Origin: Escherichia coli
GTDB taxonomy: Bacteria; Pseudomonadota; Gammaproteobacteria; Enterobacterales; Enterobacteriaceae
Direction: 5' to 3' (one strand)
Assembly (NCBI RefSeq): GCF_050920415.1
Contig: NZ_CP169309.1
DNA length: 64,000 nucleotides
This document shows positions 1 through 36,017 of the stretch, piece after piece (positions within the stretch are counted from its first letter, which is position 1; the number at the start of each line of letters is the position of its first letter). A program made the position numbers and the translations under genes. The notes beneath the pieces are model-generated. The model saw only the letters and a program-made list of their open reading frames with translations, ran no database searches and had not been told where the DNA came from.

Positions 1-743
1 GGTTCGTCGAACTGCGGATCGGCATTCAGCGAAAGTTGGAGTACGCCTTCGTTACGCCCACGGAACATCGCCAGCGCGCGGTGAGAAGGCACCGTTGACA
101 GCGGTTCGTGATGATCGAAATAGTCGCGGAATTTCGCCCCTTCCTCTTCTTTACCGTTCACCACCGTAGAAACCAAATGCGCGTTCTTCCACAGATAATC
201 ACGCACTTTCGCCAGCAGCGCGGCATCTTCGGCAAACCGTTCCATCAGGATATAGCGCGCGCCGTCCAGCGCGGCTTTGGTATCTGCTACGCCTTTATCG
301 GCATCAACATATTGTGCAGCGGCGACTTCTGGCGTGTGCGACGGATCGTTCCACAGTAGGTCGGCCAACGGCTCAAGCCCTGCTTCAATGGCGATTTGCC
401 CGCGGGTGCGGCGTTTAGGTTTGTAGGGCAGGTAGAGGTCTTCGAGTTCGGTTTTACTTAAGGTGGCGTTGATAGCATTCGCCAGTTCGTCGGTCAGTTT
501 GCCTTGCTCGGAAATGGACTTGAGGATTGCCTGACGTCTCTCTTCCAGCTCGCGCAGATAGCTCAGACGCGTTTCCAGATTACGCAACTGCGTGTCATCC
601 AGACCGCCGGTGATTTCCTTACGATAACGTGCGATAAACGGCACAGTATTCCCTTCGTCAAGCAGGCGAACGGCAGCGTCAACCTGTTCCGGGCGCGCCT
701 GAATTTCACCCGCAATAATGCGGCAGAACGAATCATTCATCAT
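1..743 (-). CDS. tex: Transcription accessory protein Tex (YhgF), N-terminal part; gene runs off the window start
   Basis: Minus-strand translation from tandem ATG at 743/740 gives [47 protein letters not shown]..., open to position 1. Missing from the ORF track because no stop lies inside the window. Confidence 0.9.
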
Positions 744-839
744 GGTTTGAGTTCATCTTTTCGGATCAAAAATCAGGGGATAGTTATACGGACTGGCTGG
801 CAAAAATGCCAGCCATCGGCAGGAGGTTAAGACTCTTCC

Positions 840-1316
840 TTACGGTTTCACGTACTCGATAGCATTAACATACCAGCTCGCTTCCCCGGCAGGGGTATTG
901 ACCACTGCCAGATCGCCCACTTCTTTTTTCAGCAATGCGCGGGCCATTGGGGAATCGATAGAGATGTAATCTTTACGGCCAAAAATTTCATCGTAGCCGA
1001 CAATGCGAAAACGGTGAGTCACGCCATCGTCGTTTTCAATCTCCACCCATGCGCCAAAAAAGACTTTGCCTTCCTGTTGCGGGGAGTAATCGACGATTTT
1101 GAGATTTTCCATGCATTTAGTGAGATAGCGCACGCGACGGTCGATTTCACGCAGACGCTTTTTATTATACTGATAGTCAGCATTTTCGCTGCGGTCGCCC
1201 AGACTTGCAGCCCAGGTCACTTTTTTTGTGACCTCCGGGCGCTCTTCACGCCAGAGATAATTTAGCTCTTGTTTGAGTTTTTCATACCCTTCCCGGGTAA
1301 CCAGGGGCGTTTTCAT
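840..1316 (-). CDS. greB: Transcription elongation factor GreB
   Basis: Track ORF 840..1352; internal ATG at 1316 gives MKTPLVTREGYEKLKQELNYLW..., the GreB N-terminus (158 aa). The track start at 1352 is an upstream GTG. Confidence 0.93.
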   Translation of the reverse strand: MKTPLVTREGYEKLKQELNYLWREERPEVTKKVTWAASLGDRSENADYQYNKKRLREIDRRVRYLTKCMENLKIVDYSPQQEGKVFFGAWVEIENDDGVTHRFRIVGYDEIFGRKDYISIDSPMARALLKKEVGDLAVVNTPAGEASWYVNAIEYVKP

Positions 1317-1543
1317 CTCGTTGATTCCCTTTGTCTGTTTGATAATGCGCACATTGGGTATAACGTGATCATATCAACAGAATCAATAATGTTTCGCCGA
1401 ATAAATTGTATACTTAAGCTGCTGTTTAATATGCTTTGTAACAATTTAGGCTGAAATTCATACCAGATTTAGCTGGTGACGAACGTAAGCTTTTTTAAGA
1501 ATACACGCTTACAAATTGTTGCGAACCTTTGGGAGTACAAAGA

Positions 1544-3612
<2,069 letters not shown>

Positions 3613-3614
3613 AT

Positions 3615-3649
3615 AAAACGGGAGGAGAAGGAGCCTCCTGTTTTATTTT
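3615..3649. terminator. Intrinsic terminator downstream of envZ (hairpin with flanking A and T runs, likely bidirectional)
   Basis: AAAACGGGAGG (3615-3625) pairs with CCTCCTGTTTT (3634-3644) with one G-U wobble; loop 8 nt; T-run 3641-3649. Confidence 0.75.
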
Positions 3650-3775
3650 GTGCACTCAGTATCTACTGAATGAATACGGTTTCAGACATCGGCACCATAC
3701 GAAGTAAAGTGTACTGTAAGCTGATTGCAGGCTAGCGTATCCTGATTAGTAAAGGCACACTAAAGGAATAGCTTG

Positions 3776-5059
3776 ATGCAACTTACCAACGAAGAACAAG
3801 CACAGATTGCTCGTATAAAAGAAAAAATCCCACGCATTGCCGCACTGGATCCTGAATGTAAGTTATTCGGTTCTGAAGGTTGGAAATATCAATGGCCGAA
3901 GCCTGCCAGCGAGGCGGAAATAGCTTCCTGGGAGAAAAAACATAGCGTCACTTTGCCACGGGAATATCGAATTTTTCTTCGCTATATCGCTAATGGCGGT
4001 CCGGCACATGCCTACGGTCTTGAATCTTTAGGCGGTACAGATATTTATGGCGATATAACAAAAGAAAGCCCTGTACCGCTTTATATGACGCAGCAGGATG
4101 TTGATGTGTTGAATGCTGGCCGTACAGAAGATGATGAAGAATATAGTTTTTTTGACGGCGCATTGACCATTCTCACCCTGGGATGTACTTATGATATTTG
4201 CCTGGTGGTGACGGGGCAGTATCGCGGAAGGTTAATGCTGACTGATGGTGATGAAGATTATCCGTTTGATTTTATATATGATAAAAATTTCCTCAACTGG
4301 TATGAACGCTGGCTGGACGATTTTATTGCTGGCATGAGTATGAAGGGTTTCGATAGAAGTTTGCCAGGAACGCAAATTCAACTGCGTGAGTGGTTTTTAA
4401 CTGAGAAAATCCCGGATTTACGTAGATCCATTTTATTCTCGCTATGCCGTTTTCCACAGATAGAACCCGAAACTTTTGCCCTTTGGGAACATGTTTGCCG
4501 CACAGAGAATGATAAAGAATTGTGTGAAGAGGCATTCACAAGATTACGCCAAAAAAAAGGTTCTTGTGCTGCAGATATTTTTCGACTCTATTTTACAATG
4601 CCAGGTGAATTACGTGATATTGCTATTAAAGATCTCCGTTTTGCCTGTAGAGATAGTGTGGTGAATATTGAGGATTATATTCATTCACTGTTAATAATAA
4701 TGCCTGAACTTGACGATGACACTCTATCCTCAGCTGTCTTTGCTATACGAGAAACAGAGTATAATAAATATGATACTTTTCTGCCGCTTCTCGAACGTAT
4801 CACTGATGACCGTCAGCAAACATTATTGTGGGCGATGAGTAAGGCGCCTGATTTCAATGAAAGCCGAGGATTCGTTGAGTTGGTATTACCGCTTTTTGCA
4901 TCATCAAAGATGGAGAATGTAAGGAAGGCTATTTTGTTGCTCATTGAAGTTAAAGATAATCGTATTCCACCATTGGTTGATGAAGCTGCAACTCGTTTCC
5001 CTGAACTGACCATTTTACGAGAAAACTACTATCTCAGGACGTGGGGACATAAGCCATAA
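3776..5059 (+). CDS. Accessory protein: N-terminal SUKH-1/SMI1-KNR4-like domain plus about 230-residue helical-repeat C-terminal region (putative immunity-type protein)
   Basis: ATG 3776 with AAGGA 8 nt upstream (track start 3773 is TTG). Motif WEKKHSVTLPREYRIFLRYIANGG and later DGALTILTLGCTYDICLVVTG...FDFIYDKNFLNWYERWLDDF resemble the SMI1/KNR4 pattern. AT-rich with rare codons; absent at this position in K-12. Confidence 0.8.
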   Translation: MQLTNEEQAQIARIKEKIPRIAALDPECKLFGSEGWKYQWPKPASEAEIASWEKKHSVTLPREYRIFLRYIANGGPAHAYGLESLGGTDIYGDITKESPVPLYMTQQDVDVLNAGRTEDDEEYSFFDGALTILTLGCTYDICLVVTGQYRGRLMLTDGDEDYPFDFIYDKNFLNWYERWLDDFIAGMSMKGFDRSLPGTQIQLREWFLTEKIPDLRRSILFSLCRFPQIEPETFALWEHVCRTENDKELCEEAFTRLRQKKGSCAADIFRLYFTMPGELRDIAIKDLRFACRDSVVNIEDYIHSLLIIMPELDDDTLSSAVFAIRETEYNKYDTFLPLLERITDDRQQTLLWAMSKAPDFNESRGFVELVLPLFASSKMENVRKAILLLIEVKDNRIPPLVDEAATRFPELTILRENYYLRTWGHKP

Positions 5060-5096
5060 ATTAATGGTTCAGAAATGATCTAACGCGGAGAAAAAT

Positions 5097-5627
5097 ATGA
5101 TCAGGGAACATATTCAGCAAGCGATAAATAATAGGTTAGCATTTGATGGCCCATTCAATGTTGTTCCTGAACCTGCAAGCACTGCGTTTGATGGCCGGAT
5201 CCCGACATTGAAAAACGGTGTCTGGCAGAAGGCCAGCCCTATGTTGCAGGCGCGTTTTGCACATTGTGGACGTTGGTTAAGCGCTACACATGGAAGCTGG
5301 CTAAGTATAAGTGACATGGAAACGCTTTGGCAGGAACACATAGAAGATACGTTTCTTGATGAAATCAAAATGAATGCTGTAGCTTCAAGTGATAATTGGG
5401 ATAACCATGCCTTGGGACTATTTCGTTCTCATCGCCTGTCACTTTTTGCCGGTAGTGATTACAGTTATGAAATGGTTTTTCTCCTTTGGCTAGATAGTAC
5501 CGTTGAGCCAGAGGTCTGGGTTTATGACTGCAATGGGGAATCACGTTATAAAGATCTTAATGATTACCTGAATGCATATATTAATGATGACGTAAGCGCC
5601 TGTGAGCGCTCCTGGCGAGTAGAATGA
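5097..5627 (+). CDS. Accessory hypothetical protein (176 aa) whose C-terminal half resembles a SUKH-type immunity fold
   Basis: ATG 5097 with GGAG 6 nt upstream; C-terminal LFAGSDYSYEMVFLLWLDSTVEPEVWVYDCNGESRYKDLNDYLNAYIND resembles the SMI1/KNR4 C-terminal pattern. Stop overlaps the next start (ATGA). Confidence 0.6.
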   Translation: MIREHIQQAINNRLAFDGPFNVVPEPASTAFDGRIPTLKNGVWQKASPMLQARFAHCGRWLSATHGSWLSISDMETLWQEHIEDTFLDEIKMNAVASSDNWDNHALGLFRSHRLSLFAGSDYSYEMVFLLWLDSTVEPEVWVYDCNGESRYKDLNDYLNAYINDDVSACERSWRVE

Positions 5628-6250
5628 ATAGCCCCCCTTGCCCCTTTGATCCACAAACCGCACATTACCTCGGTACAGTGCAAATCCACTACAGCCCAAC
5701 CACCTTCAACGCTGCCGTTAAGCATTATACCTGTTACATTAAAAAGCGTTTTAAAGGGTTTAAATGGGGAATTGGAACCGCTGGCTTATTGGCTATATTG
5801 CCCATGATCCCACAATGGTTGAAACCTTCTCATGACTTTAAACTCAACGCAATCAGTACGTTAATTCTTCTATTAATGTTGCCACTCCTCTTATCAATGT
5901 TCCTGTTAATCAGCAGAAGAATTAACGATTTTAAGTCAAAAACAAAGCAAGTTACTTTTACGAAACCCGTGCGTTATGCGTTTTATTTCGAGGGGATTGT
6001 TTTTTATGAATCTCATCAGCAGGGCATACTTCGCTGGGAAGATTTGTATAGCATTGACTATGAAGAAGATTATTTGTGGCTTTTTCTGCATTTACCGAAG
6101 AGTTTTCCCAGAGAAGCGACGAAAGCGTTTTGCGATATTTTCATTCCCGCCAGCGCGATAAAAGCGCAGCCTGAACTGGATACGTTTTTTCGTGAAACAC
6201 GCCACTCGCTGGATTATCTGTTTGTCCCGTTTAATTCTGACAGAAAATAA
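5624..6250 (+). CDS. Accessory membrane protein, YcxB-like architecture (two adjacent TM helices then a soluble C-terminal domain)
   Basis: ATG 5624 overlaps the upstream stop. Hydrophobic segments WGIGTAGLLAILPMIPQWL and AISTLILLLMLPLLLSMFLLI, followed by FYFEGIVFYESHQQGILRWEDLYSIDYEEDYLWLFLHLPK. Confidence 0.6.
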   Translation: MNSPPCPFDPQTAHYLGTVQIHYSPTTFNAAVKHYTCYIKKRFKGFKWGIGTAGLLAILPMIPQWLKPSHDFKLNAISTLILLLMLPLLLSMFLLISRRINDFKSKTKQVTFTKPVRYAFYFEGIVFYESHQQGILRWEDLYSIDYEEDYLWLFLHLPKSFPREATKAFCDIFIPASAIKAQPELDTFFRETRHSLDYLFVPFNSDRK

Positions 6251-6283
6251 AAAATCCCCCGTATCTGGTGAAACGGGGGATTT
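6245..6283 (-). terminator. Intrinsic terminator of pckA
   Basis: Perfect stem AAATCCCCCGT (6252-6262) / ACGGGGGATTT (6273-6283); on the pckA strand the hairpin is followed by TTTTTTATTTT. Confidence 0.8.
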
Positions 6284-6302
6284 CGTCGCTTAACTTATCG
6301 GA

Positions 6303-7925
6303 TTACAGTTTTGGACCAGCCGCTACCAGCGCGGCACCCGCAGGGGTGTCGGTGTATTTATCGAAGTTGTCGATAAACAGTTTCGCCAGCGTTTCAGCTT
6401 TTTCCTGCCACTGTTCCGGAGAAGCGTAGGTGTTACGCGGATCGAGGATTTTAGTGTCTACGCCCGGCAGTTCAGTCGGGATCGCCAGGTTAAACATCGG
6501 CAGAGTGAAGGTTTCTGCGTTATCCAGCGAACCGTTGAGGATAGCGTCGATAATGGCGCGGGTATCTTTAATGGAGATACGTTTGCCAGTACCGTTCCAG
6601 CCAGTGTTAACCAGATATGCCTGCGCACCCGCCGCTTGCATACGTTTCACCAGCACTTCTGCGTACTGAGTTGGGTGCAGCGACAGGAACGCCGCGCCGA
6701 AGCAAGCGGAGAAGGTTGGCGTCGGTTCGGTGATGCCACGTTCAGTACCGGCCAGTTTGGCGGTGAAGCCAGAGAGGAAGTGGTACTGAGTTTGATCGGC
6801 AGTCAGGCGAGAAACCGGCGGCAGCACACCAAAGGCGTCTGCGGTCAGGAAGATAACTTTAGTTGCGTGGCCCGCTTTGGAAACCGGTTTAACGATGTTA
6901 TCGATGTGATAGATCGGATAAGAAACGCGGGTGTTCTCGGTTTTTGAACCATCGTCAAAATCGATAGTGCCATCTTCACGTACGGTGACGTTTTCCAGCA
7001 GCGCATCGCGACGGATAGCGTTGTAGATTTCAGGTTCCGCTTCTTTCGACAGCTTGATGGTTTTCGCGTAGCAGCCGCCTTCGAAGTTAAACACGCCGTC
7101 GTCATCCCAGCCATGCTCGTCATCGCCAATCAGGCGACGTTTCGGGTCGGTGGAAAGGGTGGTTTTACCGGTGCCGGAAAGACCAAAGAACACCGCAACA
7201 TCGCCTTTCTCGCCAACGTTGGCGGAGCAGTGCATAGAAGCGATACCTTTCAGCGGCAGCAGGTAGTTCATCATTGAGAACATCCCTTTCTTCATTTCGC
7301 CGCCGTACCAGGTGCCACCAATCAGCTGCATGCGCTCGGTCAGGTTAAACGCCACGAAGTTTTCGGAGTTCAGACCCTGTTCTTTCCACTGCGGGTTAGT
7401 GCACTTCGCACCGTTCATAACGATAAAGTCTGGTTTGAAACCTGCCAGCTCTTCATCGCTCGGGCGAATAAACATGTTTTTGACAAAATGCGCCTGCCAG
7501 GCCACTTCGGTGATGAAACGGACGGAAAGACGAGTATCCGGGTTCGCACCACAGAAAGCGTCGACAACGAACAGACGTTTGCCGGAAAGCTGTTTGGTCA
7601 CCAGGCCTTTAAGATGCTGCCAGGTTTCCGGAGAGAGAGGTTTGTTGTCGTTCTTACCTTTGCCTTTATCAGCCCACCAGAAGGTATCGCGAGTGGTATC
7701 GTCACGGACGATATACTTATCTTTTGGTGAACGACCGGTGAAGATCCCGGTATCGACGGCAACGGCACCCAGATTAGTTAACACCCCGCGCTCATAACCT
7801 GTCAGGCTCGGATCGAGCTCTTCCTGATACAGCAGGTCGTAGCTTGGGTTGTAAACGATATCATGTACGTCACTGATACCATAAGCCTCGAGTTCTTGCG
7901 GGGTCAAACCATTGTTAACGCGCAT
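6303..7925 (-). CDS. pckA: Phosphoenolpyruvate carboxykinase (ATP)
   Basis: ATG 7925 preceded by AGGAG; [36 protein letters not shown]..., P-loop GLSGTGKTT; 540 aa. Confidence 0.96.
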
Positions 7926-8303: not shown

Positions 8304-10028
8304 ATGGATAACGTTGAACTTTCACCCGCAACACGCTGGGGGATGATTGCTACCGGATTACTTCAGGGTCTAGTTTGCTACCTACTGATCGCCTGGCTTT
8401 CCGGAAAAAATCACAGTTGGATTGTTTATGGCGTGCCTGCGACCGTCGCGTTTTCATCCGTTTTACTCTTCTCCGTGATCTCCTTTAAACAGAAGCGCCT
8501 TTGGGGATGGCTGGCGCTGGTGTTTATTGCCACGCTGGGAATGAGCGGCTGGCTGAAGTGGCAAACTGATGGCATGAACCCCTGGATAGCTGAAAAGGCG
8601 CTTTGGGATTTTGGTTGCTATCTGCTGCTGATGGCAATGTTGTTGCTACCGTGGATACAACAAAGCCTTCGCATCCGCAATGACAGTAGCCGCTATCGCT
8701 ATTTTTACCAGTCAGTATGGCATAACGTACTTATATTACTGGTGATTTTTCTCGCCAATGGCCTGACGTGGCTGGTACTTTTACTGTGGGGCGAGTTGTT
8801 TAAACTTGTTGGCATCACGTTTTTCAAAACGCTCTTTTTTGCAACCGACTGGTTTATTTATCTCACGTTAGGTCTGGTTACCGCACTGGCGGTGATCCTC
8901 GCGCGTACACAGTCACGTTTAATCGACTCTATTCAAAAGTTGTTCACGTTAATCGCCACGGGGTTGCTGCCGTTAGTATCATTGCTAACCCTGATGTTTA
9001 TCATCACCCTGCCGTTTACGGGCCTGAGCGCGATTTCTCGCCACATCTCCGCCGCCGGGTTGCTGTTGACGCTGGCCTTTTTGCAATTGATTTTAATGGC
9101 TATTGTCCGCGATCCGCAAAAAGCGTCACTTCCCTGGACGGGGCCGTTGCGTTGCCTGATTAAAACCGCTCTGCTGGCTGCTCCGCTGTATGTGTTCGTC
9201 GCCGCCTGGGCGTTATGGCTGCGGGTCGCTCAGTACGGCTGGACTGTCGACCGCTTGCAGGGCACGCTGGCGGTGCTGGTGTTACTGGTATGGTCGCTGG
9301 GGTATTTTGTCAGTATCGTCTGGCGTAAAGGGCAAACCCCTCTTGTTCTTCAGGGCAAAGTGAACCTTGCGGTTTCGTTATTGGTGTTGGTAATACTGGT
9401 GCTTCTTAATTCGCCGGTGCTGGATAGTATGCGCATTAGTGTGAACAGTCATATGGCACGTTATCAGAGCGGCAAGAACACGCCAGATCAGGTAAGTCTC
9501 TACATGCTCGAACAGAACGGTCGCTATGGACGTGCGGCGCTTGAGTCGCTGAAAAGCGATGCCGAGTATATGAAAGACCCGAAACGCGCACGGGATCTGC
9601 TGATGACGTTAGATGGAGAGCAACATCTTCAGGAACAGGTATCGGAAAAAGTATTAGCCGAAAATGTGTTAATTGCCCCAGGCTCTGGCAAACCGGATAC
9701 GGCATTCTGGTCGGCCTTAATCCAGGATCGCTATAACGTGATGACCTGTATTGAAAAAGACGCCTGCGTACTGGTCGAGCAAGATCTGAATAGTGATGGT
9801 CAGGCGGAGCGGATCCTGTTTGCTTTTAATGATGACAGAGTCATTGTCTATGGCTTTGACTCAGATAGAAAAGAATGGGACGCGCTTGATATGAGTTTAC
9901 TTCCGAACGAAATAACGAAAGAAAAATTACTCACAGCTGCGAAGGATGGAAAGCTGGGGACGAGGCCGAAAGCGTGGCGCGATCTGACGGTAGATGGTGA
10001 AACGCTAGAAATAAACTTAAGCAAATGA
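8304..10028 (+). CDS. yhgE: Inner membrane protein YhgE (multi-pass, function unknown)
   Basis: 574 aa with many hydrophobic helices; positional and sequence match to the gene next to pckA in E. coli. Confidence 0.88.
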
Positions 10029-10084
10029 CAATGCTTTTATCGGATACGACGCTTTATCTTACCAACAATAACTTGCGAATTATT

Positions 10085-10117
10085 GCGTAGGCCTGGTAAG
10101 CGCAGCGCATCAGGCCA
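10085..10117. repeat. REP (repetitive extragenic palindrome) element
   Basis: GTAGGCCTGGTAAGCGCAGCGCATCAGGCC, a REP-type imperfect palindrome in the yhgE-hslO spacer. Confidence 0.65.
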
Positions 10118-35745: not shown

Positions 35746-35775
35746 TTCTGGGAACGATGTTTTCGCAGAGGATGG

Positions 35776-35809
35776 AGAAAAATACGCCCTCGGAAAATTC
35801 AGAGGGCGT
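35776..35809 (-). terminator. Intrinsic terminator downstream of yhfL
   Basis: Stem ACGCCCTC (35784-35791) / GAGGGCGT (35802-35809); on the minus strand followed by ATTTTTCTCC. Confidence 0.6.
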
Positions 35810-35849
35810 TAGCTCATTAAATCGGTGTTAGCCGATTTCTGTCAGAGAC

Positions 35850-36017
35850 TTACTGTGCAGTAGGACCGCAACCGCCAATGATTTTAGAAATAGAAATTGC
35901 CGGGTGCAGCAGGTAGTCGTAAGAGCAGTTCTTATCACGGTTTTCAATATGACCAGTACATGCAGTTAACGTAGCCAGTACTGCACCTACCAGTGCAACT
36001 TTAATAAATTTGTTCAT
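35850..36017 (-). CDS. yhfL: Small lipoprotein YhfL
   Basis: Not in the ORF track (55 aa). Minus-strand ATG 36017 gives MNKFIK...TACTGHIENRDKNCSYDYLLHPAISISKIIGGCGPTAQ, with a lipobox (LTAC). Confidence 0.85.
   Translation of the reverse strand: MNKFIKVALVGAVLATLTACTGHIENRDKNCSYDYLLHPAISISKIIGGCGPTAQ

Follow-up and report, generated by a model that had tools for sequence, protein, structure and literature searches.

In a 64,000-nucleotide (nt) stretch of Escherichia coli DNA (contig NZ_CP169309.1; hereafter the window), the core genes envZ and pckA are separated by an AT-rich insert that carries three genes, designated A, B, and C. Sequence comparisons indicate, with a probability of about 0.72, that this insert is an orphan immunity-gene array and one allele of a polymorphic slot whose contents are exchanged by recombination. 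Its most likely role would be protection against a toxin that cuts DNA and that competing bacteria inject, a known kind of defense at a previously undescribed site. An initial annotation of the window had left the choice between such an array and an uncharacterized three-component module; the array is now supported by the pairing of the gene B family with Rhs toxins, the SUKH domain of gene A, and the toxin-free window.

Gene B (positions 5097–5627, + strand) encodes a 176-residue protein that is predicted to be a SUKH-fold orphan immunity protein. Pfam contains no match to it at E ≤ 0.1, and a profile of its family finds no match among the sequences of the PDB, such that sequence profiles do not place B in the SUKH superfamily. 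In the predicted structure, B adopts the α+β fold of SUKH proteins, and among the proteins that it matches in fold are two that confer immunity to Ntox15 toxins, Tdi1 and Atu4351. By sequence, B is not a member of the Tdi1/DUF1851 family (PDB 8g0k_D).

Homologues of B were found at 21 loci in a scan of species-representative genomes. In Pectobacterium parmentieri, a homologue that is 56% identical to B lies directly after an Hcp-VgrG-DcrB-PAAR/Rhs cluster. As located by tblastn, a 126-residue domain that follows the Rhs DPxGL motif is encoded immediately 5' of a B homologue in seven beta- and gammaproteobacterial species. The gap between the toxin domain and the B homologue is 10–22 nt in P. 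parmentieri, P. zantedeschiae, Lonsdalea, Serratia rubidaea, Burkholderia turbans, and Azovibrio, and 116 nt, as delimited by tblastn, in Aggregatibacter. The same arrangement is present in E. coli 05-3629, where a tssM...VgrG-DcrB-Rhs cluster includes a 1,503-residue Rhs protein, WP_032141712, with a C-terminal domain that is 75% identical to the Pectobacterium domain. Twelve nucleotides after this Rhs gene lies the gene for a 176-residue "hypothetical protein" that is 54.5% identical to B of the window. The domain terminates the type VI secretion system 1 effector of 05-3629 (L044:4847–9901) and of 69 other E. coli genomes, and the pair of Rhs domain and immunity gene is present at ≥99% identity in 70 of 5,426 E. 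coli genomes. Because the immunity gene is labeled only as a hypothetical protein, this PAAR-Rhs effector and its partner stand in RefSeq without functional annotation. The position and co-variation of the two genes, observed in eight genomes, identify the B family on sequence grounds as immunity proteins dedicated to a C-terminal toxin domain of type VI PAAR-Rhs effectors. The search for a cognate toxin in related genomes that the initial annotation had proposed is thereby answered for the B family by a type VI Rhs protein.

The toxin domain is represented by 126 clusters in a full-library search. It is located at the C terminus of the long proteins (1,172–2,621 residues) and of nearly all other well-covered matches, a position characteristic of polymorphic toxin modules. 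An alignment of 31 sequences contains six invariant residues, H, P, D, G, N, and G, including an H-x-P-D motif. Pfam and NCBIfam contain no match to the domain, and a first profile built from 7 sequences found no meaningful match in the PDB; only the broadened 31-sequence profile reached the Ntox15 domain 8fzz_A, with an E-value of 1.5e-4 and an alignment exactly over HxPD...GG...N. A single divergent member of the family matches 8fzz_A with an E-value of 0.036. These matches suggest, with moderate confidence, an HxxD deoxyribonuclease (DNase) that is a distant relative of Ntox15/Tde, for which we use the term "Ntox15-like" at that confidence because the Pfam Ntox15 model itself is silent. A NucA/NucB-like DNase, which had been an initial guess for the identity of the toxin, found no support and was dropped.

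The DNases of the Ntox15/Tde group require Mg and have an HxxD active site, and both cognate and orphan Tdi immunity proteins, which bind at nanomolar affinity, protect by splitting the nuclease fold (PMC10470768). The pairing of SUKH proteins with Ntox15 toxins was catalogued already in 2012 (PMC3482391). The toxin assignment and the fold matches of B are in agreement, since Tdi1 and Atu4351 are partners of Ntox15 toxins and the SUKH-Ntox15 pairing is an established one. From sequence and predicted fold, the most apt description of B is a new immunity family of the SUKH fold that is paired with a new Ntox15-like subfamily. By analogy, B would work like a Tdi immunity protein, yet it lies outside the Tdi and Pfam SUKH families by sequence.

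No trace of the toxin C-terminal domain or of an Rhs core is found in the 64-kb window, and the insert is carried by 0 of the 60 listed genomes among the 70 toxin-bearing E. coli. B is considered an orphan because the window contains no such toxin and the genomes with the insert are not among the listed toxin carriers. The identity of B to the toxin-linked immunity proteins is 48–56%, compared with 53–82% among the latter, and the cognate immunity protein of Burkholderia is only 53–57% identical to the other cognates. In an alignment of the family in which B is one of the sequences, B conforms to all 36 invariant columns. The ratio of nonsynonymous to synonymous substitution rates (dN/dS) is 0.15 for A and 0.36 for B, both relative to the Escherichia albertii copy, and 0.38 for C (range of 0.34–0.45). 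In experiments on other systems, orphan SUKH proteins still protect at 38–39% identity to the cognate protein (10.1101/2025.05.03.651265), and orphan Tdi proteins protect at 61–65% identity (PMC10470768). Given the range of identity within the family, the invariant residues, the dN/dS of 0.36, and these protecting divergent orphans, it is plausible by analogy that B cross-protects against toxins of the family. Relatives of B in Bacteroides and Parabacteroides are located in long arrays beside genes that, from a reading of their N-terminal sequences, resemble serine recombinases.

Gene A (positions 3776–5059, + strand) encodes a 427-residue protein with an N-terminal SUKH domain (about residues 43–170) and a C-terminal helical, HEAT-like region. 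Pfam places A in the SUKH superfamily, with an independent E-value of 2.7e-6 for SMI1_KNR4 (residues 43–152) and an E-value of 3.4e-5 for SUKH_6, and the C-terminal half aligns to proteins with PF13646 HEAT_2 repeats. The earlier description of two of the three products as SUKH-like is thus upheld, for A by Pfam and for B by predicted fold only. The gene A family comprises only 24 clusters among 5.8 billion proteins. Its enterobacterial members are solitary chromosomal genes at unrelated sites, including K. aerogenes and the yoaA–yoaB interval of E. coli; the homologues in Capnocytophaga and Saccharibacillus lie inside long co-directional arrays of small unannotated genes. Such arrays around distant relatives of A include an Imm-NTF2 protein, and a SUKH-only relative that is 54% identical to A is carried by a Serratia plasmid, where its surroundings include orphan modules of the CdiA-CT, Imm31, and deaminase types. 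From these sequence contexts, A is most likely a putative immunity protein that would do the same job as B against another toxin. A DUF7638/DUF7639 gene lies upstream of the gene A homologue in Capnocytophaga, with one gene in between, and in Saccharibacillus, where the two are adjacent (L041:6492–7511 and L042:7026–7961); this arrangement is a possible conserved pairing across phyla.

Gene C (positions 5624–6250, + strand) encodes a 208-residue YcxB-like membrane protein and is the pckA-proximal resident of the slot. The predicted architecture comprises an N-terminal strand, a helical membrane hairpin, and a PH-like C-terminal domain, with a strong hydrophobic segment at residues 76–98 and a model pLDDT of 72. 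The top Foldseek matches of the model are all annotated as YcxB-like or YcxB family, so that the initial assignment of the third gene to YcxB stands at the level of the fold; it fails at the level of the Pfam model, where C has no match to YcxB (PF14317) and only a MASE8 match (E-value of 0.016). The YcxB-like family is very large, with 1,041 matches to C in AFDB50 at E ≤ 0.001, and a full-text literature search returned no paper on YcxB function; the likeness is therefore silent on what C does. The gene C family itself comprises 18 clusters, and those with a named organism are all from Enterobacteriaceae. In every context examined (E. coli A30, Salmonella, E. albertii, Escherichia sp. MOD1-EC7003, and Enterobacteriaceae G50), C adjoins pckA. 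Database variants of C that are frameshifted or chimeric are P0074–P0076.

The gene order in the window is greB, ompR, envZ, genes A, B, and C, and then the convergent pckA. The left core flank, envZ (positions 2260–3612, + strand), and the right core flank, pckA (positions 6303–7925, − strand), are both annotated in E. coli strain N96 and serve as homology anchors. The list of open reading frames (ORFs) confirms the three frames at the positions first reported and shows them to be co-directional on the + strand, with a gap of 37 nt between A and B and an overlap of 4 nt (ATGA) between B and C. The region is 100% identical to that of N96, a strain from Tibetan pig faeces, for which RefSeq labels gene A an "SMI1/KNR4 family protein" (WP_001177604) and genes B and C each a "hypothetical protein" (WP_000617564 and WP_001087953, respectively). 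In K-12, envZ and pckA are immediate convergent neighbors, as stated in the initial annotation, with a spacer of 75 nt. Homology to K-12 stops just past the shared envZ terminator hairpin, at a left junction located at about 3645–3650 where the spacer alignment ends, and restarts at the pckA stop codon (~6301–6302). These points indicate that ~43 bp of the K-12 spacer has been exchanged for ~2.65 kb. As anticipated, the insert is far from universal in E. coli: it is present in 18 of 5,426 complete genomes (0.33%), at 99.0–100% identity and from varied hosts. It is chromosomal in 18 of 18 carriers, each of which, at ≥99% identity, has undisrupted frames for A, B, and C.

The G+C content of the insert is 41.9%, compared with 56.4% for envZ, 53.0% for pckA, and 51.6% for the whole window. 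The low G+C noted initially is thus borne out against flanks of 53–56%; the estimate of 35–40% was slightly low, since 300-nt windows across the insert range from 36% to 45%. The G+C content at third codon positions is 0.35 for A, 0.38 for B, and 0.44 for C, compared with 0.67 for envZ. The reported enrichment of rare codons is also found, with insert and core frequencies per 1000 codons of 9.9 and 1.1 for AGA, 17.3 and 3.9 for ATA, and 7.4 and 2.8 for CGA. In accord with the earlier reading, the insert contains no toxin gene; no integrase or transposase gene is present in or beside it, as judged from the ORF list and the N96 annotation. Flanking direct repeats, target-site duplications, and terminal repeats are likewise absent at the insert, where only chance repeats are found, and an Rfam search of the insert returned no RNA family. 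A comparison of the flanks with K-12 over 12 kb, aimed at acquisition from a divergent donor by way of locally raised divergence, gave 93%–100% identity per 300-nt window (~96–97% overall), with no peak beside the insert.

The only hairpins at the insert are two terminators. The envZ terminator hairpin (positions 3611–3648) is an inverted repeat with 15-nt arms that are 93% complementary, followed by a T-run. The second hairpin (positions 6252–6283) is borne by the insert and conserved in E. albertii; it has 14-nt arms that are 93% complementary and a strong T-run on the − strand. From its sequence, this hairpin is the predicted terminator of pckA and probably also terminates gene C. The non-coding leader of gene A (positions 3649–3775, + strand) contains the ribosome-binding site AAGGAA, 8 nt before the ATG. 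In one E. albertii locus (L020), homology to this leader runs on into envZ, and in another (L019), it begins only at position 3760.

Comparison of the alleles at the envZ–pckA site shows considerable variability upstream of gene C. E. coli A30 has one 346-residue gene at the site, in which a 140-residue helical N-domain is fused to C. Escherichia sp. MOD1-EC7003 has an N-domain gene, B, and C; Salmonella has an N-domain gene, CdiI_5, a 91-residue gene, a CdiI_5 fragment, and C; Enterobacteriaceae G50 has C alone; and E. albertii has A, B, and C, followed by a RelE/HTH pair. In other E. coli, the site is empty, contains a RelE/ParE-NadS pair (many genomes, e.g. L003), or contains an IS200/IS605 element (at least one genome, ETEC1738, L004). 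The presence of these last two elements at the same place indicates that the envZ–pckA site is a general insertion hotspot. The N-domain (140–150 residues, helical) is either fused to the YcxB-like protein or encoded by a separate gene right after envZ (L015:3566–3985 in E. coli A30; L021:7483–7911). It has no family match (HEAT_2 is non-significant, with an E-value of 0.29) and no useful match in PADLOC, NCBIfam, or PHROGs. The N-domain of the 346-residue protein was considered as a relative of gene A and was ruled out, as no similarity between the two was found.

The junctions in Salmonella and in the window coincide. In Salmonella enterica, a 1,225-nt cassette (L016:5806–7030) that carries a CdiI_5 gene, the 91-residue gene, and a truncated CdiI_5 copy splits the 346-residue frame between FDPQTAH and YLGTVQ, with a 5-nt overlap at the junction. 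The cassette parts the 23-nt FDPQTAH stretch from the rest of C, and the first 11 codons of the Salmonella C gene are borrowed from the CdiI_5 fragment. Homology of the window to A30 starts at position 5645, the same point as the Salmonella cassette junction; the recombination junction zone of the window (positions 5645–5667, + strand) encodes FDPQTAH, with which the conserved part of C begins, and the alleles diverge upstream of it. Despite the differing upstream junctions, the alleles retain an intact C. In E. albertii NBRC 107761, the A-B-C allele and the toxin-antitoxin allele lie one after the other. Between them are a fragment from the 3' end of pckA, an internal pckA fragment of 73 nt, and a 277-nt second copy of the 3' end of envZ (L020:9280–9626). 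These duplicated fragments indicate that two alternative envZ–pckA spacers have been joined in tandem, a layout that is the expected residue of recombination through the core flanks. The allelic series and the tandem alleles together argue that C is a slot resident with A and B as cassettes upstream of it, rather than that the three genes form a single conserved machine.

These observations suggest the following mechanism. A neighboring cell would inject an Rhs DNase by type VI secretion, and the cytoplasmic gene B protein would bind and inactivate it, such that a cell that does not produce the toxin survives. Candidate attackers would be the ~1.3% of E. coli with the domain on the Rhs protein of type VI secretion system 1, as well as Pectobacterium, Serratia, and others. 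Gene A would block some other toxin likewise. Gene C would be the resident of the slot, with cassettes recombined in just upstream of it, and strains would exchange the allele by homologous recombination in the flanking envZ and pckA genes, without a mobile-element enzyme. In this scheme, we infer that B neutralizes the toxin, that A has an immunity role, that the genes are expressed, and that recombination is the route of exchange.

Several points weigh against an immunity array. The DNase assignment depends on one modest profile-to-PDB match, given that the Pfam Ntox15 model finds nothing in the Rhs C-terminal domain, and the comparison of insert carriers with toxin carriers covers 60 of the 70 toxin-bearing genomes. 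The specificity of immunity can be very narrow, as in Proteus, where proteins with ~90% identity show no cross-protection (cited in 10.1101/2025.05.03.651265). No toxin is found beside the gene A homologues in enterobacterial, Capnocytophaga, Saccharibacillus, metagenome, or plasmid contexts; the enterobacterial homologues stand alone, and the Serratia plasmid relative has insertion sequence and intron debris on its flanks. Gene C has no link to any toxin, and an immunity role for it is not supported. Finally, a promoter scan of the + strand found no sigma-70 consensus promoter upstream of gene A, and acquired AT-rich DNA is often silenced. The lack of a promoter consensus speaks for the alternative that the insert is functionless hitch-hiking DNA, that is, relic immunity genes that are silent and slowly decaying at a recombination hotspot. 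The rarity of the insert, the moderately relaxed dN/dS of B and C (0.36–0.45), the damaged C variants in the databases, and a split gene A in one E. albertii genome (L018) are consistent with such decay. This explanation is nonetheless unlikely, since the three frames are intact in every E. coli carrier, dN/dS is well below 1 and indicates purifying selection, most clearly for A, B has lost none of the invariant residues of its family, and C remains intact across alleles with varied upstream junctions.

Two further explanations treat the genes as parts of one device. In the three-component module of the initial annotation, which would act against phage or stress, A would be a SUKH sensor, B a SUKH adaptor, and C a YcxB-like membrane effector. 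The tight, co-directional packing of the genes, the ATGA overlap, and the retention of the trio in both E. coli and E. albertii would fit such a system, as would a weak match of C to PycTM (E-value of 0.0036) in PADLOC, a collection of known anti-phage systems. This match covers the hydrophobic segment only, however, A and B have no match in PADLOC, PHROGs, or NCBIfam, and the latter two libraries contain nothing useful for C. Outside Escherichia, the three genes are not inherited together. K. aerogenes and E. coli have A by itself, B accompanies Rhs toxins or lies in other arrays, and C resides at the site in several genera, with neither A nor B present in the alleles of A30, Salmonella, and Enterobacteriaceae G50. 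The module is accordingly disfavored and considered very improbable. Less probable still, to the point of being negligible, is a toxin-antitoxin-like pair in which C would be a membrane toxin, B its neutralizer, and A unrelated. The apparent translational coupling of B and C, their adjacency in the window, E. albertii, and Escherichia sp. MOD1-EC7003, and the RelE/NadS pair at the same site in other strains speak for this pair; the alleles with C and no B, the more than 20 genomes in which B is found without C and is paired with an Rhs toxin, and the very large size of the YcxB-like family speak against it. It is mainly the lack of co-inheritance on which both readings are rejected.

The immunity array may also be part of a broader arrangement. 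In this more tentative and rather doubtful proposal, the envZ–pckA site would be a recombinase-free enterobacterial counterpart of the acquired-defense islands of Bacteroidales, a landing pad that swaps A, B, and CdiI_5 cassettes at FDPQTAH|YLGTVQ, and the resident C would itself aid survival of contact-dependent attack. If so, B and its Rhs partner would constitute a toxin-immunity family that profile libraries have missed and that acts in competition of E. coli against E. coli. In the Bacteroidales of the human gut, orphan immunity genes have reportedly been shown to decide survival of type VI attack. Such genes are little documented in E. coli, and the locus provides a concrete, testable case in which an intergenic site between core genes may act as an exchangeable immunity slot without mobile-element machinery. 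The results also permit better annotation of three unannotated families, namely two "hypothetical protein" families and the Rhs toxin domain. They do not change the understanding of such systems and are not conceptually surprising.

Two other differences from K-12 were observed elsewhere in the window. The fructoselysine operon frlABCDR, which occupies ~5.1 kb between the yhfS and yhfL genes of K-12, is missing at ~35755–35860, where the yhfS–yhfL gap is only ~100 nt. The yhgE–hslO spacer (~10006–10104) exceeds its K-12 counterpart by ~70 nt, and the K-12 alignment breaks there; the additional sequence may be a small repeat element.

Structural and genomic comparisons place the insert among several known systems. 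In predicted architecture and fold, gene C agrees with the YcxB-like proteins (PF14317), outside the reach of the Pfam model. The closest functional parallel to gene B is the Tde/Tdi system, an Ntox15 DNase and its immunity protein delivered by type VI secretion, with orphan Tdi proteins in Bacteroidales (PMC10470768). The corresponding Pfam models match neither B nor the toxin described here, delivery would be by PAAR-Rhs rather than by an Hcp fusion, and the orphan is located in an intergenic slot between core genes rather than on a mobile element. Similar to the orphan rhs/cdi modules of Enterobacteria (PMC3150448, PMC3967940), the slot houses immunity genes related to Rhs and contact-dependent inhibition (CDI) systems apart from a full-length toxin, and its Salmonella allele carries CdiI_5 genes. 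Classical rhs/cdi orphans immediately follow the main rhs or cdiA gene and still have a C-terminal piece of the toxin, whereas the insert has no toxin fragment and is located at a site unrelated to rhs, cdi, or type VI loci. The insert also resembles the acquired interbacterial defense (AID) islands, recombinase-associated AID (rAID) islands, and polyimmunity loci (PMC3482391; 10.1101/2025.05.03.651265), which contain tandem, co-directional, toxin-less genes of the immunity type, are variable between strains, and feature prominent SUKH domains with sequences that have diverged from the cognate immunity proteins. The main differences are that no more than two genes of the insert are candidates for an immunity role, that its last gene is a YcxB-like resident, and that, without a recombinase or mobile-element gene, its exchange apparently proceeds through the homology of the flanking core genes.

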